Shown here one piece after another: positions 1 through 49,261 of a stretch of DNA of 64,000 nt. The translations under genes and the position numbers were made by a program. Position 1 is the stretch's first letter. Every line of letters begins with the position of its first letter. A model generated the notes under the pieces. That model had not been told where the DNA came from. It worked only from the letters and a program-made list of their open reading frames with translations, and did not search any database. The stretch lies in sequence record NC_024124.2; one strand, 5' to 3'. The DNA comes from Escherichia phage vB_EcoM_JS09.

Positions 1-1
1 C

Positions 2-78
<77 letters not shown>

Positions 79-96
79 ACTTTAAGTGAGGAAAAT

Positions 97-441
97 ATGA
101 AAGGCAATATTTATCTGGTAGTTCATGACTTAACGTTTTATTTTAACGAACGTGAAACAGTTATTTCCGATAGGTTAATTAATTCGCTGTATCAGCATGC
201 TGATTATGTCTATTTTCAAAATGAATTCGGACATTGGAAGTTTCTTAAAAACCGTTCCGGGTTAACTAGTTTTGAATACTTTGACCGTAAAGACCTTTTA
301 AACGAAATTCCATTACAACATCGGTTCCAGAAACGCGAATCACTATACTATTGTCGTCATATACCAAATGCTGAATGTGTTGATGAAGTAATTAATCTAT
401 GGCGTAGACGTAGAGAACAAATTGATGATATGTCAAAATAA
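97..441 (+). CDS. hypothetical protein (114 aa)
   Basis: ORF-track frame 49..441 trimmed to the internal ATG at 97 because its 5' part overlaps the tRNA; GAGGAAA 6 nt upstream. Confidence 0.5.
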   Translation: MKGNIYLVVHDLTFYFNERETVISDRLINSLYQHADYVYFQNEFGHWKFLKNRSGLTSFEYFDRKDLLNEIPLQHRFQKRESLYYCRHIPNAECVDEVINLWRRRREQIDDMSK

Positions 442-444
442 GAA

Positions 445-744
445 GCCGGGTCGCTACCGGCAAGTCGTCGGACTGATGTTCCCTGAGTAAGGACTGGTCT
501 TAATAAATCTTTATGATTTGTTAATATCCCCTTACATCACAGCAGAAACGGCGCAAAGAATTATCGATTCGAGGAAATATCTTTGCCGTAAGCCGAGTAG
601 CGTTTTTGACGGAACGTTCGGATATGGTCGAGATATGGCCTTTTAAAAATATTGAGTAGCGTCAACTGCTTAATAACCGGGTTCGAATCCCGGCGTTTCG
701 TACAAACACTTGCCTTAGTAGGTGGAAACCCCGACAAGGTATAT
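445..744 (+). ncRNA. candidate small stable RNA region next to the tRNA (T4 species-1/2-like by position)
   Basis: About 300 nt without a credible ORF, ending at an intrinsic terminator; contains a perfect tRNA-type T-arm CCGGG-TTCGAAT-CCCGG (677-693) and local hairpins, but no complete cloverleaf could be folded. Confidence 0.3.
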
Positions 745-774
745 AGCCCCTTCCGAAAGGTTGGGGCTTTTTTG
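745..774 (+). terminator. intrinsic terminator
   Basis: AGCCCC (745-750) / GGGGCT (763-768) stem followed by a T-run; an almost identical element recurs at 16915. Confidence 0.7.
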
Positions 775-782
775 TATAAATA
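775..782 (+). promoter_or_regulatory. T4-type late promoter box TATAAATA
   Basis: Exact TATAAATA about 35 nt upstream of the 818 start codon. Confidence 0.5.
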
Positions 783-817
783 TAGTAAACAATAAACCTA
801 CTTTCTAAGGACCATCA

Positions 818-1444
818 ATGTATACTTTTAATGAATTTTTAGCCGAAACGGAAGTAATCACCGAAGCCGGTGTACGTATGACAAAAGAGAAATGGCAAGC
901 TGCTTACGATGCTATTTCTGGTACAAAAACTAGTACAGAGTTTTTCAAAAACGTTCAAGCCATGTATGGTATCGACACTTCCAGCCAAAAAGAATATTAC
1001 AGAGCTTCTAAAGCATTCAAAGATATTGTTAGTGGCGGTGTTTCTGCTAAATCGGGTTCGCCTAAAGTAAAACCTGCTCCTACCGTTCCTAAACCTGCGA
1101 CCCCTAAAGCAATAGCAAAACCTGAGCCTAAGCCGGAAGTAAAAGCAACTCCTAAAGCTCCCGCTCTTAAGTTTGATACTTCTAGCCTGGAAAAAAAATA
1201 TAAACAACTATCTTCGCTTGTTCGTGATATTGAATCCGATACATCTTCACTCGTTCGTGAATTCAACAGTCTTCGTAATGGCCAACATATCAACAACCTT
1301 GATACCCCAGACCTTTATCGTCTTTATTTGACTATCGAAGGTTTGAAGTATACTCAACCACTTCACGATGCGATTAAAGAAAAACTTCGTCAGGCAGGTC
1401 GTTTGGCTGCTGACGCTGCTCAGTATGCAAAAACTCGTAAGTAA
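818..1444 (+). CDS. internal head protein-like (208 aa, IPIII-sized) with Pro/Lys-rich linker
   Basis: N-terminus MYTFNEFLAE resembles the T4 internal-protein capsid-targeting sequence MKTYQEFIAE; AAGGA upstream; late promoter box upstream. Confidence 0.65.
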   Translation: MYTFNEFLAETEVITEAGVRMTKEKWQAAYDAISGTKTSTEFFKNVQAMYGIDTSSQKEYYRASKAFKDIVSGGVSAKSGSPKVKPAPTVPKPATPKAIAKPEPKPEVKATPKAPALKFDTSSLEKKYKQLSSLVRDIESDTSSLVREFNSLRNGQHINNLDTPDLYRLYLTIEGLKYTQPLHDAIKEKLRQAGRLAADAAQYAKTRK

Positions 1445-1449
1445 AGAAT

Positions 1450-1468
1450 GGGGACTTCGGTCCCCTTT
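1450..1468 (+). terminator. intrinsic terminator with TTCG tetraloop
   Basis: GGGGAC-TTCG-GTCCCC followed by TTT. Confidence 0.7.
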
Positions 1469-1496
1469 AGGGGGTCTATAACTTACTGAAAAAGTT

Positions 1497-1525
1497 GTTT
1501 ACTTCTTCCCTAGATGTGTTACTAT
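1497..1525 (+). promoter_or_regulatory. T4-type early promoter
   Basis: GTTTAC (1497-1502), 17-nt spacer, TGnTACTAT extended -10 (1517-1525). Confidence 0.6.
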
Positions 1526-1553
1526 GGTCCTATTAAAACATGAGGAGAATAGT

Positions 1554-1859
1554 ATGAGTCTTTATACTGAACTGAATAAAAAATCTGAAGAATCTGCTGA
1601 AACTATTTTTAAAAACGTGCAAAAGCGTATTTTAGAAAAGATGTATAACACTGCAGCTAAAGGTGAAAAATCTTGCCGGTTCCCGATGAGGTGTTCTTCT
1701 GATTTATGCGCAAATACTATTGAATGGCTGGAAAGTGAAGGTCTTACGGTAGAGAAAAACCCGGCGATTTCTATTGACAGTGAATCATATATTAGTATTT
1801 CTTGGGATAAACCACGTACGAATGAAGGATACTACAAGTTGTTAAGTTGGAAAAATTAA
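1554..1859 (+). CDS. hypothetical protein (101 aa)
   Basis: ORF track trimmed to ATG at 1554 preceded by GAGGAG. Confidence 0.6.
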   Translation: MSLYTELNKKSEESAETIFKNVQKRILEKMYNTAAKGEKSCRFPMRCSSDLCANTIEWLESEGLTVEKNPAISIDSESYISISWDKPRTNEGYYKLLSWKN

Positions 1860-1927
1860 AAATAATGATGTACAAACACCAAGGATGGTGATACTATAGA
1901 CTTATCAACTACAGAGGAGTAAACAAA

Positions 1928-2092
1928 ATGACTACTTTAATTATTTGGTTCGATGAAAATGAAGAAACATACTGTGTGAATATTGGTGAAAGTCCAATGC
2001 CTGAATTTGAATCCTCAGATAAAAACTCTGTTGTATCTTGGGCTGAAGGTTATAAAGCCGCTAAAGGTGACGTTGAAATAATTTACATCTAA
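1928..2092 (+). CDS. hypothetical small protein (54 aa)
   Basis: Not in ORF track (<60 aa); ATG preceded by GAGGAG; fills an otherwise empty intergenic gap. Confidence 0.45.
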   Translation: MTTLIIWFDENEETYCVNIGESPMPEFESSDKNSVVSWAEGYKAAKGDVEIIYI

Positions 2093-2138
2093 GTACGTTT
2101 ATGTTATAGTAATCACATCAAATCAAGAGGAAAATAAA

Positions 2139-2366
2139 ATGGCTAAAGTTAGTATTGATGTCGTTGATTATGAATACACCGAAGAAGTTATTCGCAACCG
2201 ACACCCTGAAGTTCATATCGATTCAGTCCAAGATTCCAAGTTCTGGACAACTGAGCTTAATCTGAGTGGTCCTTATGAAGCTGTTAAGAAGTTCATGGTT
2301 GAAGAATACTGCGAAGGCATGCACCCCGAAGACGCCAAGTTTTATGTCAATTTGATTAAAAAATAA
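2139..2366 (+). CDS. hypothetical protein (75 aa)
   Basis: ORF track; AGAGGAAAA upstream. Confidence 0.6.
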   Translation: MAKVSIDVVDYEYTEEVIRNRHPEVHIDSVQDSKFWTTELNLSGPYEAVKKFMVEEYCEGMHPEDAKFYVNLIKK

Positions 2367-2436
2367 TTTACAAACTCTTGAGAGCAGAGTATAATGCTCT
2401 CGTTGGATAATAAACCACCAATTGAAAGGTAATAAT

Positions 2437-3030
2437 ATGAACACACTGAAGAAACTTGTCGAATTCATCCGCACTAAACTGGGTACTGCTATGGCTAAAA
2501 ATCTGACTGTCGAAGAACAGTATAACGCAGCTGCAGATAAGTTGATTACCCAAATCAAAGAACTAAAAACGGCTTCTGTTAAATCTATTAATGAAGAAAA
2601 ACGTATTCGCGAACTTGTTAATGAAAAGAACAAGCAAGCCGCTTCTAAGGAACGTGAAATTCGTAAGCTCCTGGCCGAAGGACAAGATGTTACCATGCAT
2701 GCTAAGCTTGGTCTTCTGTATCGTCGAACTGCCGAACAACTTAATACAAAAGCTGACGGGTATGCCGCTATGCGAATTGAAATTGCTCGTAAGGTGGTTG
2801 AACTTGACGATGCTCGTCAGAATCTGGCAATCAAACTCGAATACATTCGTGAAACTCGAGCAGCTAATGCCCTTGGTATCTCTACGGCTGATGATGTAAT
2901 TGAAATCGCTGCACTGACTAAGGTTGATATCGAAGACACTCTGACTCGTGTTGAAACGTTCAATGGCACTCCAGCTGGTGTCGAAACCACTTCTGCTGAT
3001 GTACAAGAATATATTAACTCTTTGAAATAA
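2437..3030 (+). CDS. hypothetical coiled-coil protein (197 aa)
   Basis: ORF track frame (2422 is a TTG); first ATG at 2437 with AAAGG upstream; Lys/Glu/Ala-rich heptad-like sequence. Confidence 0.6.
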
Positions 3031-3038
3031 AATAATAC

Positions 3039-3060
3039 GGAGGACTCCGGTCCTCCTTTT
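3039..3060 (+). terminator. intrinsic terminator
   Basis: GGAGGAC-TCCG-GTCCTCC followed by TTTT. Confidence 0.65.
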
Positions 3061-3079
3061 GGATAATAAAGGAGTTAAC

Positions 3080-3676
3080 ATGCGAAACCAAAATAATGAT
3101 ATTGACTCAATGTTCGAAGAGTTCCGAGATAAGGTAAATCCACCTACGTCTTTAGTTGATTCATTACGATATGTTGCAACTGGACGTAAATGGTACTGGT
3201 CGTCTTCTTATGAGACAACTGAATATGCAAATAACCGAAAATCTTTATTAGCCCCAGGTATTATGATTCATGATATCGGAGCTATTGCTAAACTAGTTGC
3301 AGACCATGATATTAGATTCACTGATTTCGTTGCTCCTACGTGGTCTGTTTGTTGTTTAAACACTGAATGGGACTATATCAGTGAACGTTCAGATGATTAC
3401 GTAGGCTTTAGAGACAAGCTTTTAAGGTCTAACATGTTTTATATTGATACAGAAGTTCTGGTCAATAATAAAAAATACTACTTCACTTTAATCGTCGATT
3501 CTGAAACTATGTATGAAGGCAAGCCTTTGCTTAAAAGAGTTGATGCTTTAAGTGCTATTGATGCGCTTTATGAAACTATGGTTGTTAGTCCTAATTTCAC
3601 TAACAATTTAATCCTTGAGCAATTTATTATGGAATGTAGAGAATATGTCAAAGCCAACCCTGTACATGCCAATTAA
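3080..3676 (+). CDS. hypothetical protein (198 aa)
   Basis: ORF track trimmed to ATG at 3080 after AAAGGAG. Confidence 0.6.
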   Translation: MRNQNNDIDSMFEEFRDKVNPPTSLVDSLRYVATGRKWYWSSSYETTEYANNRKSLLAPGIMIHDIGAIAKLVADHDIRFTDFVAPTWSVCCLNTEWDYISERSDDYVGFRDKLLRSNMFYIDTEVLVNNKKYYFTLIVDSETMYEGKPLLKRVDALSAIDALYETMVVSPNFTNNLILEQFIMECREYVKANPVHAN

Positions 3677-4040
3677 GCCCTGGGCATACGAATACAAACG
3701 TAAATTAATCCCAAATGAAGTACTATTTGGCCCTATTTTAGCTTTAGCATTTTTAATCTTTATGATTATAGGAGCTATTTTAGATTCCAATAAAGTTATA
3801 TCGTCTGATGCAGTGTTTTTACTTATTATACCCGGGTCGTTTATTGTACCATTTTTATTAATGCCTATTAACTGGGTGGGATATTGGTACCAAGGACGTC
3901 ATCATAGAGCCCGATTAAGAGAATGGAAAGTTCAGTGCGCAAAAGCCCAAGCTCAGTATGATGAAGCTGTTAAAAAGTATGAATACGAAGAAGCTATGGA
4001 ATTCGTTAAGGAAATAAGATGCAAAAGCCTCAACTCTTAA
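3645..4040 (+). CDS. small membrane protein, C-terminal tail EFVKEIRCKS
   Basis: ORF track frame (3615 is a TTG); ATG at 3645; two hydrophobic segments. Confidence 0.5.
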   Translation: MSKPTLYMPIKPWAYEYKRKLIPNEVLFGPILALAFLIFMIIGAILDSNKVISSDAVFLLIIPGSFIVPFLLMPINWVGYWYQGRHHRARLREWKVQCAKAQAQYDEAVKKYEYEEAMEFVKEIRCKSLNS

Positions 4041-4378
4041 CCGTATGGCCTTCTCTTGGTGAGAACATTCTAATTTTTATTATGAGTATTGGCATGGGAT
4101 TTGCCTTTGGATTAGTTGGATTTCTTATTGACGGCGTTGTGTTAGGATTTATAGGGAACACTGGTGGATTCACAGACCAATGGCAGGACTTACGGTATAC
4201 CCAAGCCTTTGCATCCATCGCATCATTTTGTACTGTAGTCTATTTTTACTACGATTTTATAAACCATAACAAGAAAAATAAAAAGGTTTACGCTTCTCAA
4301 ATGATTAGTTATAATGAACTCCTAGCTAGACGTGAAAATGAAACAATAGAAAACTTTATTAAGGAATGTAGAAAATGA
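4019..4378 (+). CDS. small membrane protein, C-terminal ENFIKECRK
   Basis: ORF track; AAGGAAA upstream; Gly-rich hydrophobic segment. Confidence 0.6.
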   Translation: MQKPQLLTVWPSLGENILIFIMSIGMGFAFGLVGFLIDGVVLGFIGNTGGFTDQWQDLRYTQAFASIASFCTVVYFYYDFINHNKKNKKVYASQMISYNELLARRENETIENFIKECRK

Positions 4379-4680
4379 GTAAGATTATTGAAATTAAAGT
4401 ACCAGAGTTTAATGATGCCAAATCCGCTTCAGACGCAATTTATAAACTTCTAAATCAAGCTGAACGTATCGAAGAAGAAGCAACAAAGATCGCAGACCAA
4501 TATGCAGTATCGTTTTCTGTAGGTGATTATGGTAGCGGTCGTACTTATTATCCTAAGGGTGAAATCGTATCCCAGTGGATGAAAGATGAAATTGAAAATA
4601 ATGGTGGCGATGTTAAGCGTGAAGGTAATGGTTACGTTATTACTGAAGGTGCTTGGGTTTCGTCTTCTGCGTTGTGCTAA
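4375..4680 (+). CDS. hypothetical protein, tandem family member 1 (ends GAWVSSSALC)
   Basis: ORF track; ATGA overlap with upstream gene. Confidence 0.6.
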   Translation: MSKIIEIKVPEFNDAKSASDAIYKLLNQAERIEEEATKIADQYAVSFSVGDYGSGRTYYPKGEIVSQWMKDEIENNGGDVKREGNGYVITEGAWVSSSALC

Positions 4681-4689
4681 GGAATTATT

Positions 4690-4962
4690 ATGTCTAAAGA
4701 ACAAACCGAACTGGCTGAAGCCGTAGCAAAAATCTATGCAGCTATTGAGGCTGCCAAAGAAATTGCTGATAAACAAAACACAACATTCAACTTGTATCCA
4801 GCTTATGGTATGGGTGGAACCTATCATTCACCCGGACATCTTAAAGCCGATCTTGAACGTTGTACAAAAAACGGCTATGCCGAATGGGCCGACGTTTACC
4901 AATACGACTATAACCTGAGTCTCGAAACTGGTGGTTGGGTTGCATCTTCTCACACTTGCTAA
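4690..4962 (+). CDS. hypothetical protein, tandem family member 2 (ends GGWVASSHTC)
   Basis: ORF track; CTAAGGAA upstream, the same context as member 3. Confidence 0.6.
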   Translation: MSKEQTELAEAVAKIYAAIEAAKEIADKQNTTFNLYPAYGMGGTYHSPGHLKADLERCTKNGYAEWADVYQYDYNLSLETGGWVASSHTC

Positions 4963-4971
4963 GGAAACCGT

Positions 4972-5169
4972 ATGTCTCGTGAATTAGATTGTGCTGTACG
5001 TACCGCAGTAGCTGCTCTAGAAAACCTGTTCCAAATTGCAACAGAAGAACGCGAAGAAGTTACATTATGGATTGAAGATAACGCAGGTCTGAATCTCCAG
5101 GACGCGATCTCATTATCTAATAATAGCATTACTGTTCAAGGCTGGGTATCATCTAGTTATTCTTGCTAA
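4972..5169 (+). CDS. hypothetical protein, tandem family member 3 (ends QGWVSSSYSC)
   Basis: ORF track; CTAAGGAA upstream. Confidence 0.6.
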   Translation: MSRELDCAVRTAVAALENLFQIATEEREEVTLWIEDNAGLNLQDAISLSNNSITVQGWVSSSYSC

Positions 5170-5173
5170 AACA

Positions 5174-5203
5174 GTTTACAACAAGATAGGGCTATGTTAT
5201 AGT
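5174..5203 (+). promoter_or_regulatory. T4-type early promoter inside an inverted repeat
   Basis: GTTTAC (5174-5179), TGnTATAGT around 5195-5203; arms GATAGGGCTAT / ATAGTAGTCCTATC flank the -10. Confidence 0.6.
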
Positions 5204-5231
5204 AGTCCTATCAAATTAAATGGAGTCTGCA

Positions 5232-5471
5232 ATGATTTATTACGAAAGTATTGGAACTAAAGTGGTTGCTAAAACCATTACTCGTGAAAAGTTTGCAAAG
5301 ATATTCGATATGCGTTATAAAAAATCTGAACACAAAGGCATCCGATTCGAAGATGCGCACTGTACAATTTGCCCTTATAATGAAGACATAAACGGTACAA
5401 TCGTTCCATTGGTAGAGGCTTCACATGATGACCTCTGGGATGAATATAATATCGCATGTCGTGAAATTTAA
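5232..5471 (+). CDS. hypothetical protein (79 aa)
   Basis: ORF track trimmed to ATG at 5232 after GGAG. Confidence 0.5.
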   Translation: MIYYESIGTKVVAKTITREKFAKIFDMRYKKSEHKGIRFEDAHCTICPYNEDINGTIVPLVEASHDDLWDEYNIACREI

Positions 5472-5495
5472 GTTAATTAATCCGAGGAAAATATT

Positions 5496-6452
5496 ATGAT
5501 GTTAGTTATTGGTTCTCGTGCACTTCACTATCATGGTCTTATTGATTCTAGCGCTATCAAAAATAGCGATTGGGACTTTATTGCGGACCAAGGTTCTTGG
5601 AATGCATTCAAAAATCAAATGATGGGTGTATATGTTCACCAAGACAACCCTGATGTCCAAGTTTTCAAATGCTTCCATAATGGACGCGAAACTCATTTTG
5701 AAGCATATATTGTTCCGGCAATCACTAATGTTCGTGAATTAGTCGGTGAACTCACTCCTGAAGATTTCACGTCTTCTTATGACCTTTTAAAATACGCCAA
5801 GAAAAATTTGACTAAAGATCGTTTGACCGGGTTTTACTGGGCAACTCCTGAGATATGTCTTGCAATTAAAATGTCTCATCGTTTCAAGAAAAATAATCCA
5901 TTCTTTTTAAAGACTATGAACCATATTCAGTATCTTCGTGGTAAAGGTGTTACACTGAACGATGAACTTACTGAAATTATGCTGAAACGCCAGAAAGAAA
6001 CTTTGAACTATGCTCACCCAGTTCTTGACACTTCTAAAAGTGCGTTCTTTAAAGATGACATCTATACATATGACCATGATACTATTCACGAAGCCATTGC
6101 ACTAACAGACCGTCCGGCTTATACGTTTTACATGAAAGACGGTTCTGAAGTCATGACCTCACGCGAGAAGTTCGAATCGTTACCAGAAATGGTCAAATTG
6201 GCCGGCGTATATGAAGAATCATGTGTACTAGCGTTAGAACGTTCTCAGATTCCTAATAACTTTGAAATTAACCCTGAAGCCAGTTTCATGATGGCATTAG
6301 AAAAAGTCTGCACAATCATCACCTCCGGTTGGTTCCGTGAGTTCGCTTGGGAAAATTATAGCAAAGTAGTAAGTATGTACCAAAGCTTAGGACATGACGA
6401 TTACGTCAAGCGTTTCAAACAAAACTTTCATATGGTAAAACCTTTCAAATAA
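5496..6452 (+). CDS. hypothetical protein with possible Pol-beta-type nucleotidyltransferase motif (318 aa)
   Basis: ORF track; GAGGAAAA upstream; N-terminal GSRALHYHGLIDSSAIKNSDWDF fits hG[GS]-x(9-16)-DhD only loosely. Confidence 0.55.
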   Translation: MMLVIGSRALHYHGLIDSSAIKNSDWDFIADQGSWNAFKNQMMGVYVHQDNPDVQVFKCFHNGRETHFEAYIVPAITNVRELVGELTPEDFTSSYDLLKYAKKNLTKDRLTGFYWATPEICLAIKMSHRFKKNNPFFLKTMNHIQYLRGKGVTLNDELTEIMLKRQKETLNYAHPVLDTSKSAFFKDDIYTYDHDTIHEAIALTDRPAYTFYMKDGSEVMTSREKFESLPEMVKLAGVYEESCVLALERSQIPNNFEINPEASFMMALEKVCTIITSGWFREFAWENYSKVVSMYQSLGHDDYVKRFKQNFHMVKPFK

Positions 6453-6532
6453 TTTCACAAAACAGTTTACAAGGTCTGTAGTTGTTGATACTATAGACCT
6501 ATCAAAACAAATGAGTGAATGGAGATATAAAA

Positions 6533-6733
6533 ATGACTACTTTGAATAAACGTTTCGGTAAAGCTAAACCTGGTTGTGCAGCAAAACGTCGTTATGTTTT
6601 CGCTCAGTTAGAAGATGTAGAGTATCAGATTAATCAAGTTCACATTACTGGTATCGAGCCTATGTGTGGCCTTGAAGCTCTTCGTGAAGTTCGTGATGGG
6701 TATCGTCGTGACATCGAAGAAATGTCAAAATAA
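6533..6733 (+). CDS. hypothetical protein (66 aa)
   Basis: ORF track trimmed to ATG at 6533 after GGAG. Confidence 0.5.
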   Translation: MTTLNKRFGKAKPGCAAKRRYVFAQLEDVEYQINQVHITGIEPMCGLEALREVRDGYRRDIEEMSK

Positions 6734-6789
6734 GTGTACAAACTGATAGGGCTATATTATAGTAGTCCTATCAACTTGAGGAGAATATT

Positions 6790-7095
6790 ATGAAATTAAC
6801 AGAAACCAACCGAATTGGTCTTTTAACAATACTTGCATCACCTTTTTACGCAGCCCTTTCTGTTGCAGTATTACAAAAGGCTTACGATATGGATGGTGTT
6901 CCTGGTTTTATATTCTTATCGCCGTTTTTGCTATTCGTTGGAGCATTGTTATTATATGCCACGACTGGTTTTGACCATAATGTCTGGGTCAATTATAAAC
7001 GTAAATTGTCTGAAGAAGAACACGCAGAAGCTCGTAAAAAAGCTATTGAATCTACCAATCTAGAAAATTTCATTAAAGAATGTCGAGGAAAATAA
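6790..7095 (+). CDS. small membrane protein, C-terminal ENFIKECRGK
   Basis: ORF track; GAGGAGAA upstream; two hydrophobic segments. Confidence 0.6.
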   Translation: MKLTETNRIGLLTILASPFYAALSVAVLQKAYDMDGVPGFIFLSPFLLFVGALLLYATTGFDHNVWVNYKRKLSEEEHAEARKKAIESTNLENFIKECRGK

Positions 7096-7096
7096 T

Positions 7097-7783
7097 ATGA
7101 ATAGTTCTAAAGTGTTTAATAGTCAAGCTCGTGCAGTAGGTGGTTTTGCCGGCGGTATTTCTAATGATAAAATCAAGAACGAGCCTATGTTCTTCAACTG
7201 TAGTTTAGAATTTGCTTATAATAACGGCGGTCCTATTACTCGTAGCTTCATCATGAACTTGCCGGACGATTGGAACACTGACCAGGTTGTATTTGATTCA
7301 CGAGTCCACATGCTGATGCCTGGTTGGTACCCTGCTATTCCTGGATATCACCATGATGACGTACCGCGCCCAGATATTCCAGTTGGTCAACACTTTATTA
7401 CTGCAGGACAACCTGATTATGACAATCCTCGCTATTTGTCTGAACATATTCTTGGTCTTGTTAACGCTGATGTGTGTCCTACTCATTTTGCAACAGGAAC
7501 TGCAGAGTTCAGTCAGATTCCTGATGGCGAACTTATCTATCGTCAGTGGCACAAAGAAGTCCTCGAAAAAATTGAAAAAGGTGAACTAGAGAAATGGGAA
7601 GCTCCAGATCGTACTCTTCTTCAGTTTGATTGGCAGACATGGCATACAGGTTCCCGCGCAGTAAGTAACGGTTGGCGTTGGTTCGGACGTGTATCTCGTA
7701 ATACAGACCGAGTTAAAAAGATTACCAATGAAATTCGTGTCAATGCTCAAGTTTATCTGGAATTCCCTATGGAAGGCTGGTAA
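7097..7783 (+). CDS. hypothetical protein (228 aa), His/Asp-rich
   Basis: ORF track; GAGGAAAA upstream; no confident family assignment. Confidence 0.6.
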   Translation: MNSSKVFNSQARAVGGFAGGISNDKIKNEPMFFNCSLEFAYNNGGPITRSFIMNLPDDWNTDQVVFDSRVHMLMPGWYPAIPGYHHDDVPRPDIPVGQHFITAGQPDYDNPRYLSEHILGLVNADVCPTHFATGTAEFSQIPDGELIYRQWHKEVLEKIEKGELEKWEAPDRTLLQFDWQTWHTGSRAVSNGWRWFGRVSRNTDRVKKITNEIRVNAQVYLEFPMEGW

Positions 7784-8274
7784 TGATTAGCAAAACATAT
7801 TGGTCTAATATAGACGATGTCAACGAAGGTATTTCATACTATTCAGTAGATTGGACAGGATGTCCATCCTACTTAGTGAAACATATTTGCCAAGAATTTA
7901 AAATCGACCAGCCAGCAGGTATTATCGTGAACAGATACATTAATGGATATCAACCTATCGATGAAGTAATACGAACAACTCAAGCTGAGCTTGAAAAGTT
8001 TTTCAATAAGTGCCAATGGACAACAGGATGGATTATATTTGTACCGTCGGTATGGTTTTTTAGTACTAAGGTGAGTTCTTTCGGTTTTGTTGATATTATT
8101 GCTATCTTATTAGCATCTATTATCATAAGTGTTGTTGGTGGCATCATTGGCGGCGGCACTGTCGCTATCATTATTAATCTTATTAAAAGTAGTTTACAAG
8201 AACATAAAGACAAGATAAAAGCCAAGAATAATGAAGTTGAACGTTTTATTACAGAATGCAGGAATTTGAGATGA
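7783..8274 (+). CDS. membrane protein, C-terminal ERFITECRNLR
   Basis: ORF track; TAATG overlap; Gly/Ile-rich transmembrane segment. Confidence 0.6.
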   Translation: MISKTYWSNIDDVNEGISYYSVDWTGCPSYLVKHICQEFKIDQPAGIIVNRYINGYQPIDEVIRTTQAELEKFFNKCQWTTGWIIFVPSVWFFSTKVSSFGFVDIIAILLASIIISVVGGIIGGGTVAIIINLIKSSLQEHKDKIKAKNNEVERFITECRNLR

Positions 8275-8507
8275 GTATAGCAATTTACATTAAATCAGAA
8301 TCATGTGATAGTTATCTGTACACATACGATAAAGATGTGTCAGAAGAAAAAATCAAAGACGACCTTAATACGGACCTTGATTTGTTCCGTCCTATTGCAG
8401 ATTACAAACTTGCGGTCTCTAATAGTGAAAGTCCATCTAAAGAAACGCGCATTGAAGAATTTATGTCCAAATTAATGGCCAAATCATGGGACCGAGATGA
8501 TGAGTAA
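8271..8507 (+). CDS. hypothetical protein (78 aa)
   Basis: ORF track trimmed to ATG at 8271 (ATGA overlap). Confidence 0.45.
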   Translation: MSIAIYIKSESCDSYLYTYDKDVSEEKIKDDLNTDLDLFRPIADYKLAVSNSESPSKETRIEEFMSKLMAKSWDRDDE

Positions 8508-8955
8508 GAAAAATAAAGTGAAAGAGCTATCAGCCGGTATTATCTTCATGACAAAAGATAAAGAGTTATTCATGGGGCGTGTAACTGGTTCTCGTCCTAA
8601 AGGTGCATTAGCTCATCGGTGGGATATTCCTAAAGGCCGTGTCGAACCCGGCGAATCTCCTATTGAAGCCGCTATTCGTGAATGCGAAGAAGAAACTGGG
8701 TTTACACAATATGACCCTGCCTTCCTGAAAGACCTAGGCGAACATCATTACTCAGACAATAAGAATATTCATCTGTTCCAATATACCATCCCTGTAGAGC
8801 ACGAGCAATTCAGAAACAGTGTTTGTAATTCCTATCATACATTCCCGGACGGACGACAGATTCCTGAATTTGATGCATTCGCTTTAATTAAACCTTCTCA
8901 ATGGGAATATGTAATGGGCAAATCATTATATAAGGTGCTCACTACCCTCCTATAA
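8497..8955 (+). CDS. nudE: Nudix hydrolase
   Basis: Nudix box GRVEPGESPIEAAIRECEEETGF; sits immediately upstream of lysozyme as in T4 (e.1). Confidence 0.8.
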   Translation: MMSKKNKVKELSAGIIFMTKDKELFMGRVTGSRPKGALAHRWDIPKGRVEPGESPIEAAIRECEEETGFTQYDPAFLKDLGEHHYSDNKNIHLFQYTIPVEHEQFRNSVCNSYHTFPDGRQIPEFDAFALIKPSQWEYVMGKSLYKVLTTLL

Positions 8956-8989
8956 GTAATAAATACCTCCTATAAACGTGGGAGGTATT

Positions 8990-9478
8990 ATGAATATATT
9001 TGAAATGCTTCGTAATGACGAAGGTCTTAGACTGACTTTATACAAAGACACTGAAGGCTTTTGGACGATTGGCATAGGCCATTTAGTAACAAAGAACCCG
9101 TCTTTAGCCGTAGCTAAAGCTGAACTTGACAGAATGATCGGTCGTAAATGCAACGGTACAATTACCCTTGATGAGGCTGAAAAGCTATTTAATGAAGACG
9201 TTGATAAAGCCGTCCGCGGAATCTTGGGTAATGCTAAACTTAAACCGGTATATGATTCTTTAGATGCAGTTCGTCGATGTGCATTGGTCAATATGGTCTT
9301 CCAAATGGGTGTAGCAGGTGTAGCTGGTTTTACTAATTCTCTTCGTATGCTTCAACAAAAACGTTGGGATGAAGCGGCAGTAAATCTAGCCCAATCTAAA
9401 TGGTATCGTCAGACACCTAATCGCGCGAAACGCGTAATCTCAACATTTAAAACAGGAACTTGGAAAGCGTATATATGA
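8990..9478 (+). CDS. e: T4-type lysozyme (endolysin)
   Basis: [32 protein letters not shown]... near-identical to T4 lysozyme as recalled; GGAGG before ATG at 8990 (8978 in the track is a GTG). Confidence 0.95.
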
Positions 9479-9756
9479 AAACATATAGTGAATTTTTATC
9501 AGAATCTATTCTTAACGAAGCTACTGACACATTTGCGACTAAGCTAGGTGCAGCTTTGGTTGAAGCTGAAAGTCTATTAGCACGTATTTCTGAACTTGCT
9601 AGTAAGATAGATACTCGCAAATTTGAGCGCACCAGTGATATCGTTAAGCTTGAAGCATTGTTGCGTATGTGCGATAAGCCAGAAGAAATCGCTAAGAACG
9701 GCTCGCTGATGAAACAACGTCTTGAAAAATATATTTCAGGCGCTTCAGAAAAATAG
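9475..9756 (+). CDS. internal head protein-like (93 aa)
   Basis: N-terminus [10 protein letters not shown] matches the capsid-targeting sequence; ATGA overlap with e. Confidence 0.7.
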
Positions 9757-9814
9757 TGTTTACTTCCTCCAATGGTTTTGATACTATACATTCATCAACT
9801 ACTTGGAGGAAATT

Positions 9815-10228
9815 ATGACTCGTATCAATTTAACACTTGTTTCTGAACTGGCCGACCAACATCTTATGGCTGAGTATCGTGAATTACCACGCGTATTTGG
9901 TGCAGTCCGTAAACATGTTCAAAACGGTAAACGTGTAAAGGATTTTAAAATCTCTCCAACATTTATCTTAGGCACAGGTCACGTAACATTCTTTTACGAC
10001 AAACTCGAATTTTTACGTTTACGCCAAATCGAGCTAATCGCTGAATGCTTGAAACGTGGTTTCAAAATCAAGGACACGACTGTCCAGGATATTTCCGACA
10101 TCCCTGCCGAATTTTGTAATAATTATGTCCCGTCCGAAGCGTCCATTGCGATAAGTCAAGCACGCTTAGATGAAAAAATTGCTCAACGTCCGACTTGGTA
10201 CAAATACTATGGTAAATCAATTTACTAA
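9815..10228 (+). CDS. denV: endonuclease V, pyrimidine-dimer DNA glycosylase
   Basis: [31 protein letters not shown]... about 90 percent identical to T4 endo V as recalled; GGAGGA upstream. Confidence 0.95.
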
Positions 10229-10234
10229 GGAAAA

Positions 10235-10351
10235 ATGAAAATGTATCAAGAATTTATCATTGAAGCAGAGGCCAAAGGTCCTAAAGTAGATGTTGACGAT
10301 ATTGGATATGATTTTAACAACTTCGGAATTATTTCTGGCGGTAAAGCTTAA
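10235..10351 (+). CDS. mini internal-protein-like ORF (38 aa)
   Basis: Not in ORF track; MKMYQEFIIEAE... is a capsid-targeting-like N-terminus followed by only about 28 residues. Confidence 0.4.
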   Translation: MKMYQEFIIEAEAKGPKVDVDDIGYDFNNFGIISGGKA

Positions 10352-10354
10352 ACG

Positions 10355-10384
10355 GTTTACGCTTAAGTATTAATATGGTATAAT
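10355..10384 (+). promoter_or_regulatory. T4-type early promoter
   Basis: GTTTAC (10355-10360), 18-nt spacer, TGgTATAAT (10376-10384). Confidence 0.6.
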
Positions 10385-10414
10385 TGCTCTATCAAAACAA
10401 ACAAGGAAACAAAA

Positions 10415-10729
10415 ATGAAAACGTATAAAGAATTTATTGCAGAATCCGCCAACCAACGCGTTGAAGGTGGTTATATTTGGATTGAACAAGTTGAGCCACC
10501 GAGCCGCACTTCTACAGGTAAATGGAAAATTACTGTTGATGGTCCTGGTGGTAAACGTAGGACTCTTAAAGAAATTAACGGGTACTATGAAGAAGCTCTT
10601 TCGGATGCAGGAACTTACATGATGCAAATCATGATTAAAAACCCTGAAAACCGTTTTGCAGCTAAAGTCTTCCGCCGTATTGGTAATAAACTTTATGATG
10701 CATATTCTAAAAACTTCCCTAAAGAATAA
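10415..10729 (+). CDS. internal head protein-like (104 aa)
   Basis: N-terminus MKTYKEFIAE; AAGGAAA upstream. Confidence 0.75.
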   Translation: MKTYKEFIAESANQRVEGGYIWIEQVEPPSRTSTGKWKITVDGPGGKRRTLKEINGYYEEALSDAGTYMMQIMIKNPENRFAAKVFRRIGNKLYDAYSKNFPKE

Positions 10730-10755
10730 CATAAATTAAAACAATAGGAAAAAAA

Positions 10756-11058
10756 ATGAAAACATATCAAGAATTTATTACTGAAGCGCGAGTGAGTGCA
10801 GGTAAATTAGAAGCCGCTATAAATAAAAAGGCCCATTCATTTCATGATTTGTCCGATAAAGACCGTAAGAAACTTGTAAGCCTTTATATTGACAAAGAGC
10901 GTATTCTCGCTCTTCCTGGCGCTAATGAAGGTAAACAGGCCAAGCCTTTGAATGCTGTCGAAAAGAAAATTGATAACTTTGCTTCTAAATTCGGTATGTC
11001 TATGGATGACCTTCAGCAAGCGGCTATCGAAGCAGCTAAAGTAATTAAAGGTAAATAA
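10756..11058 (+). CDS. internal head protein-like (100 aa)
   Basis: N-terminus MKTYQEFITEA; T4 IP-sized. Confidence 0.75.
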   Translation: MKTYQEFITEARVSAGKLEAAINKKAHSFHDLSDKDRKKLVSLYIDKERILALPGANEGKQAKPLNAVEKKIDNFASKFGMSMDDLQQAAIEAAKVIKGK

Positions 11059-11115
11059 CAGTTTACTTTCTCCTAGAATTGTGATAGTATATTCATAATT
11101 ACTTGGATGGGTAAA

Positions 11116-11244
11116 ATGACTTATATTAATTTGACTTTAGTATCTAAATTTGCTGATCAACATTTAATCGCCGAATACTGTGAATTGCCACGTGTTTTTG
11201 GTATAATTCGTAAACACGTGGCAAAAATATTTACATTCAAATAA
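11116..11244 (+). pseudogene. truncated second copy of denV 5' end (42 codons)
   Basis: Translates [42 protein letters not shown], matching the denV N-terminus at 9815 and then stopping; has its own GTTTAC promoter at 11061. Confidence 0.6.
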
Positions 11245-11387
11245 AATGGGAACAACCTGGACCTCATGATTCTATGAGGGATTCCCGCCAACCTGTAATA
11301 AGGTCGAGCCCAAGTGCGGTAATGGGTAAATACAGAAATGGACAATTCATGCGCCATGGAATGGCCCCCAACCTTAAGAGAAATAAT

Positions 11388-11927
11388 ATGAGAACATTTT
11401 TAACTGGACCTTATCTATCCCTGATGAATGCTTTTACACACCATTCTGATGCTAGAGTAGAAGAAATTTGTAAGAACGGTTATGCCCCACCATTTGAAGA
11501 CGTACTCAAGCAGTACTGTACACTTCGTTTAGACGGCGGCAGACAATCAGGTAAATCGACCGCAGTAACTAATTTTGCTGTTAATTGGCTGTATGACGGT
11601 GGAACAGTTATTGTTCTTTCTAATACTTCAGCTTATTCTAAAATTTCTGCTGGCAACATTGAAAAAGAATTTTCTCGTTATTCTAGCGACGATATTCGAT
11701 TCCGTTTATTTACTGATTCTGTCCGTAGTTTTATTGGCAATGAAGGTTCTAAATTCCGTGGATTAACGCTTTCTCGTATTCTGTATATAATTGACGAGCC
11801 TATTAAAGCTCCTGATATGGATAAGATTTACAACATACATATTAAAACAGTCCAACACTGTTGCAAAAGCAAATATTGCATCGGCGGTATTGCTCGTCCT
11901 CAATTTTTTGTGATTGGAATGCAATGA
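11388..11927 (+). CDS. P-loop NTPase-like protein (179 aa)
   Basis: Walker A GGRQSGKST and Walker B-like ILYIIDEP; start set at ATG 11388 (AAGAGAAA upstream); in-frame ATGs at 11274 and 11322 are alternatives. Confidence 0.55.
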   Translation: MRTFLTGPYLSLMNAFTHHSDARVEEICKNGYAPPFEDVLKQYCTLRLDGGRQSGKSTAVTNFAVNWLYDGGTVIVLSNTSAYSKISAGNIEKEFSRYSSDDIRFRLFTDSVRSFIGNEGSKFRGLTLSRILYIIDEPIKAPDMDKIYNIHIKTVQHCCKSKYCIGGIARPQFFVIGMQ

Positions 11928-12232
11928 TGACCACTATTGAAGTTTTTGAGTATTGTTATAACAGCCCAGTATGCAATAAAAGGGCTCTTGTAGAAAATTA
12001 CGAGATCTACCATTTTAAACCTAAACGATATTGTTTGACTAAAGGTCCGTTCGCAGGTCAGCAGGTTCTTTGTACTGCTCCTAATGCACGGTTGATGACT
12101 AGTATTCCGCATTTCAAAATGGAATTTATTGATGGGCCGTTTAAGGGATTAATCACTCAAAGTTTAATGGCGTTTAATTCCGTCCCATTTTTGATTAAAG
12201 AAAAAACTTGGATAAATTTATTTTCTAATTGA
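11924..12232 (+). CDS. hypothetical protein (102 aa)
   Basis: ORF track trimmed to ATGATG at 11924 (overlaps upstream stop). Confidence 0.5.
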   Translation: MMTTIEVFEYCYNSPVCNKRALVENYEIYHFKPKRYCLTKGPFAGQQVLCTAPNARLMTSIPHFKMEFIDGPFKGLITQSLMAFNSVPFLIKEKTWINLFSN

Positions 12233-12238
12233 GGTTAT

Positions 12239-12601
12239 ATGAAAGCATATCAAATTCTTGAAGGTGCGCATAAAGGCACTATTTATTTTGAAGACGGTAC
12301 TCAGGCCCGGATTATTGTCTCTAAGACTTTTAAAGAAGACGCTATTGTAGACCCGGAAATTTTCTACGGTTTGAATGCCCGTGAAATTGAAATTGAACAT
12401 CAACCTAAAGTTAAAATTGAAGGTGGTCAACACCTGAACGTTAACGTTCTGCGTCGTGAAACTCTGGAAGATGCAGTTAAGCATCCGGAAAAATATCCTC
12501 AGCTGACCATCCGTGTATCCGGTTATGCAGTTCGCTTTAACTCTCTGACTCCAGAACAGCAGCGCGACGTTATCGCTCGTACCTTTACTGAGAGTCTATA
12601 A
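12239..12601 (+). CDS. grcA: GrcA/YfiD-like autonomous glycyl radical cofactor
   Basis: C-terminus [63 protein letters not shown] carries the RVSGYAV glycyl-radical motif; C-terminal half uses CTG/CGT-rich host-like codons. Confidence 0.85.
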
Positions 12602-44878: not shown

Positions 44879-45514
44879 ATGAAAACTACTCCTATTACTA
44901 TCGCTATTGACGCAATCATAAAACAAGCTTCTTCTTTGGCCGCTATGGCCAAAGTAATTAGTCAAAACCCTGCTCGTTATAATGCTATTCTAGAAACTCT
45001 TCGACGCCCTGGACTTAGTAATTATGAAAGTCGTGTAATTATTACAGGTGTTGGTAAGAACGCTAATATCGCAACTAAAGCTTCTGAGACATTTGCTTCA
45101 CTCGGTATCCCGAGTATGTACTTGAACACCGGGCATTATTCTCACGGTGATGCAGGATTCATTGCGCCTAATGATGTGTTGATTCATATTAGTCGTTCTG
45201 GTAAAACTGAAGAAATGATAGGCGTGGCTAAGCATCTTAAAACGATTCGTCCGAACGTCAAACAGATTCTGTTGCATTGTAACCCAGACATTCCACAAGA
45301 AAATGAAGCCCTTTTTGATTACTCTTTCTGTACAGGCATCGCAGTAGAGGTTGATGAGAATTCTCTGGCTCCGACCATGTCCACTACATTGTTGTTAGCG
45401 CTTATCGATACTTTTGCTATCAACCTTTCGTCTGAGCGTGGATTTACCTCTAATGACTTCCTTAAGTTCCACCCTGGCGGTGCACTAGGTGCCATGTTAC
45501 GAGGCGAACAATGA
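44879..45514 (+). CDS. SIS-domain sugar-phosphate isomerase, arabinose-5-phosphate isomerase-like
   Basis: RVIITGVGKNANIATKASETFASLGIP ... HGDAG resembles the KdsD/GutQ SIS core; no CBS domains. Confidence 0.75.
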   Translation: MKTTPITIAIDAIIKQASSLAAMAKVISQNPARYNAILETLRRPGLSNYESRVIITGVGKNANIATKASETFASLGIPSMYLNTGHYSHGDAGFIAPNDVLIHISRSGKTEEMIGVAKHLKTIRPNVKQILLHCNPDIPQENEALFDYSFCTGIAVEVDENSLAPTMSTTLLLALIDTFAINLSSERGFTSNDFLKFHPGGALGAMLRGEQ

Positions 45515-45654
45515 AAGCAATAACAATAGGACTTTTACTATTGATGCTTGTCATGACTATCTACTGGAGCTTAACGGCTCCAGTAATGATTCCAACACTT
45601 GTAATCGGATGGATTATGATTGGACTACAAGCAAAGTATGAATGCTTTAACTAG
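45511..45654 (+). CDS. possible small membrane protein (47 aa)
   Basis: Not in ORF track; MKAITIGLLLLMLVMTIYWSL... hydrophobic; ATGA overlap with the SIS gene. Confidence 0.4.
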   Translation: MKAITIGLLLLMLVMTIYWSLTAPVMIPTLVIGWIMIGLQAKYECFN

Positions 45655-45695
45655 AATAGTGTACAATACTCCTACTTACTAATGAGGACCACAAC

Positions 45696-47381
45696 ATGAA
45701 AAAAGCTGTTATTCTTGGTGCTGGACTGGCAACTCGTTTGTATCCAATAACGCATCATATTCCTAAGGTGCTTGTTAACTATAAACAAGACACTATTCTG
45801 AGCAATTTGTATACAATTTATTCTGACCTTGGTGCAGATGAAATTATTGTAGTAGTTCATTCAAAATTTGCTGAAACTGTTCGAGCTTATTGTGAGCAAG
45901 AAGGGTTCAATGTGACTATTCGTACAGTTGATGAAGCATATGGTTCTGCTTATGCTCTTGCTAAATTACACAAAGATTTAGACGGCCATAATGTAATTGT
46001 TAACTGGTGTGATATTATTCCTGATTTTGGTTCATGGTCTTGGAATGTTAACGCAATCTATGTTAAGGGTGACGAATGTCGATATAATTTCGACGGTGAA
46101 AATATCACTAACGTAGGTTCAACAGGTGGTAATGTTGTAGGAATTTATCAGTTCAAAGACTGGGAATTCTATATGGGTTCTACTGATGAGGAAATTCATG
46201 AATACTGCAAAGGACGTGATTTCGTAGAATTCCTTTACGGCAGCGCATTCAATAAATCAGAGCTTATGAATCTAATTGATTTAGGTGATATGCCTAAACT
46301 TGAAAAAGCTCATGAAGTTCGTGAACTTAATCGTAGTTTTAATGCAGTTGAAATTGGTGAAGAAACTGTAACTAAATTCGCATTAACCGAACAGGGCCGA
46401 GCTCTTCAGAAAGATGAGATTTCATGGTATCTTAAAGTGAAATCAGATTCAGTTCCTCAGTTAGTTTCTGTTAATGAAAATAACTTTGAAATGGAACGCA
46501 TTAAAGGTAAGCCGGCATTTGAATATATTAAATCCAAATCGAGTCTTGCTCGTCCACAAATTGTTGATGCAATTTTAGACGCACTGAAATTCAGCACAGA
46601 CACTTATTTTGTAAGTCCTGAAACTGTTCGTCGTGATTTCACTAAAGAATTCTATACGAAAGTTATTGATCGTTGTGAAAGCATTCAACCATTGATTGAT
46701 TCATTTGGTAAAATCACACATGTGAACTACACTAAGATTGGACGTCTGAAGCCAATGTTGAAACAAGCTTTAGAACACCTTATTCGTTATCATAACCGTT
46801 CTCAGGGACAGTACTCTGTTATTCATGGCGACCCGAACTTCAGTAATACTATGATTACTGATAATGGTGAAGTCAAGTTTATCGACCCTCGCGGATATTT
46901 TGGCGAAACCAAGATTTATGGGCCAAAATTGTATGATGAAGCTAAAGTGCTTTATGCTGTTTCAGGTTATGATGAATTCAACGCTAATCCGACCTGGGGA
47001 CAGTTTACTATTGATGAAACAACTTGTAATGTGACTATTAACATCAATCCATTAGTTTACAAATATGGAAAGATGAGTTCGTTTAACGAGTATCATCATT
47101 TGGCTGTAGCAATTATCTGGATTGCATTAGGTGGTTATTTCAAGAATAATCCACTTAAAGCGGTAGCCGCATATTATAAAGGTATGGAACTTCTGACTAA
47201 GCAATTACGTAACATGGGCCGTGTACTTCAGGACGGCTCTATTAGTTATGACGTAGCAGAACCTGTAACGGCTACTCTGATTACAAAAAATCCTGGTAAA
47301 TGGGTACTAACTGATAAAGAAACTGGTGTTTCCTATCGTCCAATCGGTGGCGATATCACTCATCAATGGGAACGAATCTAA
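45696..47381 (+). CDS. bifunctional sugar-1-phosphate nucleotidyltransferase / kinase (561 aa)
   Basis: N-terminal MKKAVILGAGLATRLYPIT (GlmU/RmlA/LicC-type NTase); C-terminal SVIHGDPNFSNTMITDNGEVKFIDPRGYFG (APH/choline-kinase-like kinase). Confidence 0.75.
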   Translation: MKKAVILGAGLATRLYPITHHIPKVLVNYKQDTILSNLYTIYSDLGADEIIVVVHSKFAETVRAYCEQEGFNVTIRTVDEAYGSAYALAKLHKDLDGHNVIVNWCDIIPDFGSWSWNVNAIYVKGDECRYNFDGENITNVGSTGGNVVGIYQFKDWEFYMGSTDEEIHEYCKGRDFVEFLYGSAFNKSELMNLIDLGDMPKLEKAHEVRELNRSFNAVEIGEETVTKFALTEQGRALQKDEISWYLKVKSDSVPQLVSVNENNFEMERIKGKPAFEYIKSKSSLARPQIVDAILDALKFSTDTYFVSPETVRRDFTKEFYTKVIDRCESIQPLIDSFGKITHVNYTKIGRLKPMLKQALEHLIRYHNRSQGQYSVIHGDPNFSNTMITDNGEVKFIDPRGYFGETKIYGPKLYDEAKVLYAVSGYDEFNANPTWGQFTIDETTCNVTININPLVYKYGKMSSFNEYHHLAVAIIWIALGGYFKNNPLKAVAAYYKGMELLTKQLRNMGRVLQDGSISYDVAEPVTATLITKNPGKWVLTDKETGVSYRPIGGDITHQWERI

Positions 47382-47767
47382 TGCACCGTGTAGAAAACAT
47401 GCTTAATCTTTGTTTTGATGTCGATGATTGTATAACAGAGTGGAATAACAATCGTGATTACGTGAACTTCAAACCAGACGTCGAAATGGTGACTGCCATT
47501 AATGCCCTGTATGATGCAGGGCATACAATAACGCTTTACACTGCTCGCGGTATGAAGTCAGTCGGTCCTGGTCGTATAGCAATTGACATTCTCCCAAGTC
47601 TGATTCAGAACTTGGCAAACATTGGATTGAAGTACCATAATTTGCTAACACATAAACCAGTATATGATTGGATTATCGACGACAAAGCTATGCGTCCTGA
47701 CGAATTCAAAGCTCTTATGAATAAAGGCGAATTCGAAACATTTAAATCATATAAACCGAATCTATAA
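47381..47767 (+). CDS. HAD-like phosphatase (128 aa)
   Basis: N-terminal CFDVDDCIT resembles HAD motif I; start trimmed to ATG at 47381 (TAATG overlap). Confidence 0.5.
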   Translation: MHRVENMLNLCFDVDDCITEWNNNRDYVNFKPDVEMVTAINALYDAGHTITLYTARGMKSVGPGRIAIDILPSLIQNLANIGLKYHNLLTHKPVYDWIIDDKAMRPDEFKALMNKGEFETFKSYKPNL

Positions 47768-47821
47768 TAATTTAAGTAAGACCTGCAAAAACCATCGCAA
47801 CAATTAACGCGAGATGCAAAA

Positions 47822-48982: not shown

Positions 48983-49140
48983 TTTCTAGAAAAACTTTTA
49001 ACCACCAACTTAACGAAGAGATTTTGACTATGAAACTGAACACTAATGAACAAATTCTTAAAAAGGCCCTGATGGGCCTGTTTGAAACTAAAGCGGCTAA
49101 AGTGATTAAAGAAACCTGTTCAATTGGAATACTACGCTGA
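48979..49140 (+). CDS. hypothetical small protein (53 aa)
   Basis: Not in ORF track; ATGA overlap. Confidence 0.35.
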   Translation: MISRKTFNHQLNEEILTMKLNTNEQILKKALMGLFETKAAKVIKETCSIGILR

Positions 49141-49261
49141 TGCATTTCTTCATAGTGTTCTTGGAAGTATCGATGCTGAAGCTTTACGTTATATCAACAT
49201 TGTCAAGAAATTCAAATAAGCTTTACGAATTGAGTATATAATAAATTGTATTGAGGTAAAC

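Follow-up and report, generated by a model that had tools for sequence, protein, structure and literature searches.

Five open reading frames (ORFs) of Escherichia phage vB_EcoM_JS09 (NC_024124.2) begin with the T4 capsid-targeting sequence (CTS), a ten-residue N-terminal tag, and their products are probably internal (ejection) proteins of the T4 type that would be packaged into the head, cleaved by the prohead protease gp21, ejected and likely directed against host defences. The stretch analysed, here called the window, comprises 64,000 nt, and all coordinates are window positions. Four of the genes form a cluster and the fifth, ORF208, lies upstream. In the following list a slash marks a predicted cleavage site and aa stands for amino acids.

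818-1444, plus strand: ORF208, 208 aa; CTS-like start MYTFNEFLAE/TEVITE/AG; phrog_2280, unknown function
9475-9756, plus strand: ip93, 93 aa; CTS protein; phrog_3499, "internal head protein"
10235-10351, plus strand: ip38, 38 aa; MKMYQEFIIE/A, with 28 residues after the tag; phrog_35655; RB69ORF125c family
10415-10729, plus strand: ip104, 104 aa; MKTYKEFIAE/S; phrog_3966, unknown function; the same as RB69ORF124c
10756-11058, plus strand: ipII orthologue, 100 aa; MKTYQEFITE/A; phrog_7857, "internal virion protein" (4.5e-55)

The capsid-targeting sequence

A six-frame scan of the 64 kb with the regular expression M-x-x-[YFW]-x-[EDQ]-[FWY]-[LIVM]-x-E returned exactly five matches, the ORFs starting at 818, 9475, 10235, 10415 and 10756, all on the plus strand and all at the ORF start. 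In 200 shuffles of the window the expression matched 0.015 times on average and never more than once, and it found no match in 31 distant lysozyme loci (330 kb). A preliminary description of the window had listed these five ORFs, four of them clustered and a larger one at 818-1444 with the start MYTFNEFLAE, and had called their bodies unrelated to each other. Coordinates, N-termini and the last statement all proved correct: without the first ten residues no BLASTP cross-match at E<=1e-3 was obtained, and the proteins belong to five different PHROG families. Among 54 loci around homologues of the lysozyme gene e, gathered from IMG/VR, CTS ORFs were confined to 26 T-even-like loci (those of pEK20, phi25-307 and T4 included). 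These hold 77 such ORFs, always on the strand of e and mostly directly after it; adding the window gives 82 CTS ORFs in 27 loci, which fall into 18 body families.

The shared start could have been nothing but nucleotide sequence conserved next to the ribosome-binding site (RBS), the circumstance that the preliminary description had named as fatal to its proposal. Codon usage and flank identity rule this out. Pairwise nucleotide identity among the five genes is 0.66-0.80 over the 30 CTS nucleotides versus 0.31-0.35 on either flank, RBS region included, and the similarity ends at the ATG on the 5' side. A survey of 79 distinct CTS gene starts, which are related sequences and not independent ones, shows synonymous codons in free use at Thr3 (ACT/ACA/ACC/ACG = 26/19/13/5), Tyr4 and Ile8 (ATC/ATT = 28/26), and GAA and GAG at Glu6 and Glu10 in the background ratio. 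No variation occurs at Met1, Phe7 and Glu10, and Ala or Ser occupies position 11 in 67/79. Lys2 is always AAA and Phe7 is TTT in 77/79, a codon bias typical of gene starts. A peptide kept despite synonymous variation bears the signature of selection on the CTS peptide; what is conserved is the protein sequence of the motif, with the caveat that the sequences surveyed are related.

The first ten residues of T4 IPIII are enough for packaging, and residues 4 and 7 govern targeting while residues 8 and 10 govern processing by gp21 (PMC9026906, a review of Black's work). Residue 4 of the window ORFs is Tyr or Phe (Y/Y/Y/Y/F) and residue 7 is Phe in 5/5. At the putative gp21 site stand Ile or Leu at position 8, Glu at 10 and Ser, Ala or Thr at 11 (LSE/S in ip93, IIE/A in ip38, IAE/S in ip104, ITE/A in ipII and LAE/T in ORF208). 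Residue by residue, all five N-termini agree with what experiments have defined as necessary in the T4 CTS. The head genes lie beyond the window; the congeneric phage phi25-307 encodes a portal protein (gp20), gp67, gp68, a maturation protease (gp21), a scaffold (gp22) and a major head protein (gp23).

IpII, ip93 and ip104

The member with the clearest relationship is the product of 10756-11058, which shares 93% identity with T4 IpII over 100 aa, the full length (E 2.5e-68), and judged by its sequence is IpII. T4 IpII abolishes the restriction that a fused GmrSD enzyme of the BrxU type exerts (Silas et al. preprint, 2023), an activity reported for T4 IpII only, and the window orthologue is predicted to inhibit single-chain GmrSD. 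In RefSeq, ipII, ip93 and ip86/38 (ip38 and its 86-residue counterpart, see below) carry the labels "internal head protein" or "internal virion protein".

The start codon of ip93 overlaps the stop codon of e (ATGA, 9475-9478), which suggests that its translation is coupled to that of e. In T4, e is translated late. The protein occurs in ~495 phage records, ~237 of them at >=80% identity, where the examples among the matches listed adjoin a lysozyme gene, and ~258 below 60% (~47% among the matches listed), mostly from Tequatrovirus. With bas37_0261, which lies in the ipI locus of phage Bas37/KarlGJung beside the gene of the McrBC inhibitor bas37_0260, ip93 shares 47.6% identity (E 1e-22). ip104, named "Ip10" in Shigella phage SP18, is found in ~188 records, and relatives at 52-57% identity are present in Enterobacter and Kosakonia phages. 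Its AlphaFold2 (AF2) model, built on a 3-sequence alignment, was too poor to use (pLDDT 46.8).

Homology of the bodies of ip93, ip38, ip104 and ORF208 to T4 IPI, T4 IPIII or Bas37_0260 was considered and rejected, as BLASTP matched residues 1 to ~20 only, i.e. the CTS. Searches of the window CTS proteins against Pfam returned only sub-threshold noise (CsgH 0.074, DUF7412 0.005), and sequence searches against the PDB gave nothing under E 0.1.

Locus structure and recombination

The surrounding genes are as follows.

2-78, plus strand: tRNA-Arg, upstream of ORF208
8497-8955, plus strand: nudE
8978-9478, plus strand: lysozyme gene e
9815-10228, plus strand: denV, endonuclease V (Pfam PF03013 Pyr_excise, 6.6e-14; phrog_1183, 6e-63)
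11116-11244, plus strand: denV', a truncated second denV (pseudogene) with ~37 homologous codons, at T4's denV position

Along the plus strand the order is tRNA-Arg, ORF208, a run of small genes, nudE, e, ip93, denV, ip38, ip104, ipII, a denV fragment, a vs.8-like P-loop gene, vs.7 and grcA/vs.6. The equivalent order in T4 is nudE-e-ipIII-ipII-denV-vs.8-vs.7-vs.6, and from this match between nudE and vs.6 it follows that the cluster sits in T4's classical ipII/ipIII locus. Both positions are those of ip loci (by e/denV, or in the tRNA/57B region), the cluster lying between e and vs.8 and ORF208 after tRNA-Arg. denV interrupts the cluster between its first gene (ip93) and its second (ip38), and is not itself an internal protein gene; the cluster had rightly been placed around it.

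Over its whole extent the region 8900-11400 shares 99.0% identity with Escherichia phage vB_EcoM-pEK20 (Straboviridae, Tevenvirinae, Mosigvirus JS09). Of the 857 phage records that match the region, only 33 reach a coverage of >=80% of the 2.5 kb. Entire genes distinguish close relatives from one another: in phi25-307 the order is ip93-denV-ip86-ip104-ipIII-ipII-ip109, T4 has ipIII-ipII only, and other Mosigvirus loci show further combinations. The locus is mosaic, in agreement with its earlier designation as hypervariable.

One exchange could be mapped. Upstream of the window ipII and over the first 12 nt of the gene, through ATGAAAACATAT, the sequence is that of the phi25-307 ipIII gene, and from the next codon onward it is that of ipII. 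The crossover lies at ~10753-10768, within the CTS codons; an ipIII cassette was therefore lost or gained by crossover in the CTS-coding repeat. A second event is recorded by denV'. Because it shares 73% nucleotide identity with the intact denV (9815-10228) and lies exactly at T4's denV position, it indicates that a second, divergent denV allele was acquired and one copy then decayed. The pseudogene also contains a perfect 13-nt inverted repeat (11185-11197 / 11212-11224), and phi25-307 holds another CTS gene, of 109 aa, at this spot.

Promoters and stem-loop joints

Four promoter elements accompany the genes.

775..782, plus strand: consensus T4 late promoter TATAAATA, a perfect match 36 nt upstream of the ORF208 ATG, just after a GC hairpin and T-run
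9755..9820, plus strand: T4-type early promoter (GTTTAC...TACTAT) in a stem-loop pairing with the denV Shine-Dalgarno sequence; inverted repeat I5
10356..10384, plus strand: upstream of ip104, a strong promoter of the sigma-70/T4 early type (TTTACG-17-TATAAT, TG included); 10/12 matches, the best of the region
11061..11106, plus strand: T4-like ipII/denV junction with early-promoter hexamers plus stem-loop (fold z -3.05 over 11053-11125)

Promoter-early stem-loop (PeSL) cassettes are known from the hyperplastic regions of T4-type phages (Arbiol et al. 2010, PMC2839356). Their arrangement, a sigma-70-like early promoter with a stable stem-loop between stop and start codon, was found at 9755-9820 and at 11053-11125. 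The former PeSL-like joint folds with -18.3 kcal/mol (z -3.1) and aligns with the ipII-denV intergenic region of T4. Upstream of ip104 no significant stem-loop was detected (z -0.6), and the PeSL arrangement is absent there. Like PeSL cassettes, the window joints place stem-loop-embedded early promoters between stop and start codons, and close relatives of the window differ in gene content at such joints. Unlike them, the stems of the window pair with the Shine-Dalgarno sequence and do not form GGGG/CCCC terminators, and a second type of joint is also in use, the 30-nt CTS-coding repeat inside genes.

Proposed mechanism and alternative explanations

We infer packaging, cleavage, ejection and anti-defence activity for the uncharacterised members as follows. 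The first ten residues would serve as a propeptide for capsid targeting, binding the gp22/gp67/gp68 scaffolding core during prohead assembly. gp21 would then cut behind Glu10; in ORF208 a further cut, behind the conserved Glu16, is probable. The freed bodies (83 residues in ip93, 28 in ip38, 94 in ip104, 90 in IpII and ~192-198 in ORF208) would stay in the head with the DNA, be ejected with it into the next host and act there before any phage gene is expressed. Their most likely activity would be stoichiometric inhibition of nucleases that attack sugar-modified cytosine DNA (GmrSD/BrxU, McrBC and the like). Homologous recombination at the 30-nt CTS-coding repeats and at the early-promoter/stem-loop joints would reshuffle the repertoire.

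An injected anti-defence role is the published view of T-even internal proteins (Rao & Black 2010; PMC3012670; PMC6024577; Silas 2023; HIDEN-SEQ 2025). Besides IPI, three experimental cases speak for it: IpII, IPIII, which is needed to infect ECOR17, and Bas37_0260, which inhibits McrBC (HIDEN-SEQ preprint, 10.1101/2025.11.20.689424). Together with the IpII orthologue of the window they lend support to the earlier suggestion that the locus is a reservoir of injected anti-defence proteins. As for the likely targets, the Mosigvirus genes of the arabinosyl-cytosine pathway are found at 44879-49978, downstream of the DNA polymerase gene (a SIS-domain isomerase, an NTP-transferase, a peptidase-U32-like protein and a thymidylate-synthase-family enzyme). 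Arabinosyl-cytosine DNA is cut by GmrSD/BrxU (PMC6024577 among other sources).

Several observations weigh against this interpretation. With the exception of IpII, the bodies show no resemblance to characterised inhibitors (T4 IPI, T4 IPIII, Bas37_0260), and structure, whether by PDB sequence searches, AF2 or Foldseek, yielded no functional clue. Mosigvirus NP stays sensitive to BrxU, a comparison that leaves the ip genes of NP aside. The literature searched contained no virion proteomics for ip93, ip104, ip86/38 or ORF208 (internal proteins of Mosigvirus, JS98 and RB69). The consensus late promoter was found at ORF208 only; before the cluster no exact TATAAATA is present and a stricter late-promoter search gave one-mismatch motifs only, while early-type promoters precede ip104 and denV. 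Finally, mature ip104, IpII and ORF208 are basic (isoelectric point, pI, 9.6-9.7), which is compatible with a role in packing DNA as well.

It is unlikely, in our judgement, that the five proteins are packaged mainly for structural reasons, as basic and abundant head proteins that condense or neutralise DNA or aid core and prohead assembly without inhibiting defences. The pI values, the long Pro/Lys-rich linker of ORF208, the head-assembly aberrations of T4 IPIII- and triple-IP mutants and the co-purification of internal proteins with gp22 (PMC9026906) would all suit such a role. It gives no reason, however, to expect 18 unrelated body families exchanged among close relatives, nor the neutral ip93 and the acidic ip38, and all internal proteins to which a function has been assigned are anti-defence factors.

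Very unlikely is a scenario in which the common start is a recombination or expression module instead of a packaging signal for all five, with some proteins, notably ip104 behind its early promoter, acting only after de novo synthesis. The strong promoter at 10356-10384 and the crossover within the CTS codons would be expected in this scenario, and IPIII without its CTS, if provided by the host cell, is still able to rescue infection. In contrast, T4 internal proteins are made both early and late, the conservation of the peptide despite synonymous variation argues for selection on the peptide, and the conserved positions are exactly those required for targeting and cleavage (PMC9026906).

ORF208 and a possible third locus

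The least recognised member of the set is ORF208, whose sequence makes it a good candidate for a further internal-protein family. It is annotated as "hypothetical" in all ~142 records and nowhere labelled an internal protein. Most of its relatives start with the canonical MKTYNEFLNES.VL[ST]E/AG, and in an 11-sequence alignment Glu16 is invariant and Ala17 nearly so. The family start resembles the extended propeptide of T4 IPI (MKTFKEF...ITE/A). A profile search of 1.84 billion representatives recovered only 13 true relatives, 13/13 with a CTS-like start; in some, the Pro/Lys linker is flanked by a different N- or C-terminal domain. In the AF2 model (pLDDT 72), residues 20-73 and 118-208 form two helical domains predicted with confidence, and the Pro/Lys-rich linker between them is disordered. 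Foldseek with this model found nothing below E 1 in the PDB, and in BFVD it returned the protein's own family only.

The late promoter is not peculiar to the window: at a distance of 33-48 nt, TATAAATA also precedes the first CTS gene of the locus in five other phages, L006, L008, L009, L016 and L025 (six loci with the window). A common layout was observed at window 775-1444, L006 2815-3977, L008 2317-3479 and L025 660-1775, namely a terminator hairpin, TATAAATA and, after these, one CTS gene or two. A CTS family of 157-178 aa (MKSY[TA]QFLNEAV) stands in relatives in tandem with the ORF208 family, and the two exchange domains across the Pro/Lys-rich linker (P0031, P0033, P0034, P0035).

A bolder proposal, which we put forward as a possibility somewhat short of probable, is that ORF208 and the tandem family represent an unrecognised third locus in T-even-like phages, one of late-expressed, head-packaged, larger modular ejection proteins (N-domain, Pro/Lys linker, C-domain) with an IPI-like extended propeptide, and that ip93, ip104 and ORF208 each neutralise a different modification-dependent defence against arabinosylated cytosine DNA.

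The 38-residue gene

The counterpart of ip38 has 86 residues in phi25-307 and at least 213 other records, and this parent protein is already annotated as "internal head protein". Exactly 144 nt (48 codons) are missing from ip38, in frame. The deletion is flanked by two copies of the 8-nt repeat GTCCTAAA, and the junction at ~10276-10285 lies in the GTCCTAAA microhomology, a configuration typical of slippage or microhomology recombination. Since ip38 is a 144-nt deletion of a gene that is full-length in at least 213 records, it is not nascent but decaying, a remnant that keeps a complete CTS. Of the two fates the preliminary description had offered for it, decay thus stands, and a newly forming gene is ruled out by the origin as a deletion. 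The gutted product may still be packaged.

That ip38 is a functional micro-protein, an injected 28-residue peptide kept for its conserved C-terminal tail, seems highly doubtful to us. Phages from Korea, Nepal and Belgium carry the ORF intact and at the same length, also in differing neighbourhoods, and the tail that remains (DDI..DF.NFG..SGGKA) shows fairly good conservation within the family. Yet 48/76 mature residues are gone, and with them the block that the family conserves best (GDAEDF..RNGY.F); the allele with the deletion is in the minority (9/~150 phage records); and the few substitutions between ip38 alleles are mostly non-synonymous (3:1, 2:1, 1:1).

Comparison with known systems

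The system is of a known kind with a few unrecognised members, and its concept has already been published. With T4 IPI, IPII and IPIII the window proteins share the N-terminal CTS, the locus by e and denV, similar sizes (8-21 kDa) and one member, IpII (93%). They differ in the bodies of ip93, ip104, ip86/38 and ORF208, which are unrelated to IPI, IPII and IPIII. In the window denV stands inside the cluster, whereas in T4 it follows it, and the phage DNA, judging from the pathway genes, would carry arabinosyl-cytosine instead of glucosyl-hmC. Bas37_0260 likewise consists of a CTS fused to an orphan body and acts against a type IV restriction system, and its neighbour bas37_0261 is the ip93 homologue mentioned above; no window protein matches Bas37_0260 past the CTS, however, and bas37_0261 is without a reported phenotype. 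The giant phages SPN3US and phiKZ as well as P22 and T7 also load ejection proteins into the head and deliver them with the DNA, and according to PMC5694885 those of SPN3US are cleaved by the prohead protease too. Targeting signals and proteins differ in all of these, and the ejection proteins of P22 and T7 build a conduit and do not inhibit defences.

What our analysis adds is the deletion origin of the mini-gene, the crossover within the CTS codons, the denV remnant and evidence for the unannotated ORF208 family as a late-expressed CTS protein. Internal proteins are the only phage counter-defences already in the cell as the DNA enters, and phenotypes have so far been described for IPI, IpII, IPIII and Bas37_0260 only. 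The window offers three intact, widespread orphan candidates with clear boundaries, ip93 (~495 records), ip104 (~188) and ORF208 (~142), as well as a natural truncation (ip38) and a mapped cassette exchange via the CTS-coding repeat. These members are worth testing, although nothing here will surprise a T4 specialist. How they fare against modification-dependent nucleases that cut arabinosyl-cytosine DNA would bear on predicting the host range of therapeutic Mosigvirus phages.

Neighbouring features

A search of 1-12500 against Rfam gave tRNA as the sole match. The non-coding stretch 518-800 follows tRNA-Arg and takes the place of the stable RNAs rnaC and rnaD of T4. Neither ARAGORN nor Rfam at gathering thresholds called anything in it; a tRNA-like T-arm sequence, GGTTCGAATCCCGG, lies near 680-700. 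The vs.8-like gene at 11274-11927 (phrog_1488, a weak AAA/terminase-like P-loop) is extended upstream in the window, where its ORF starts at 11274; relatives annotate a start equivalent to 11388. The segment 11245-11390 resembles debris of the rearrangement that truncated denV'.

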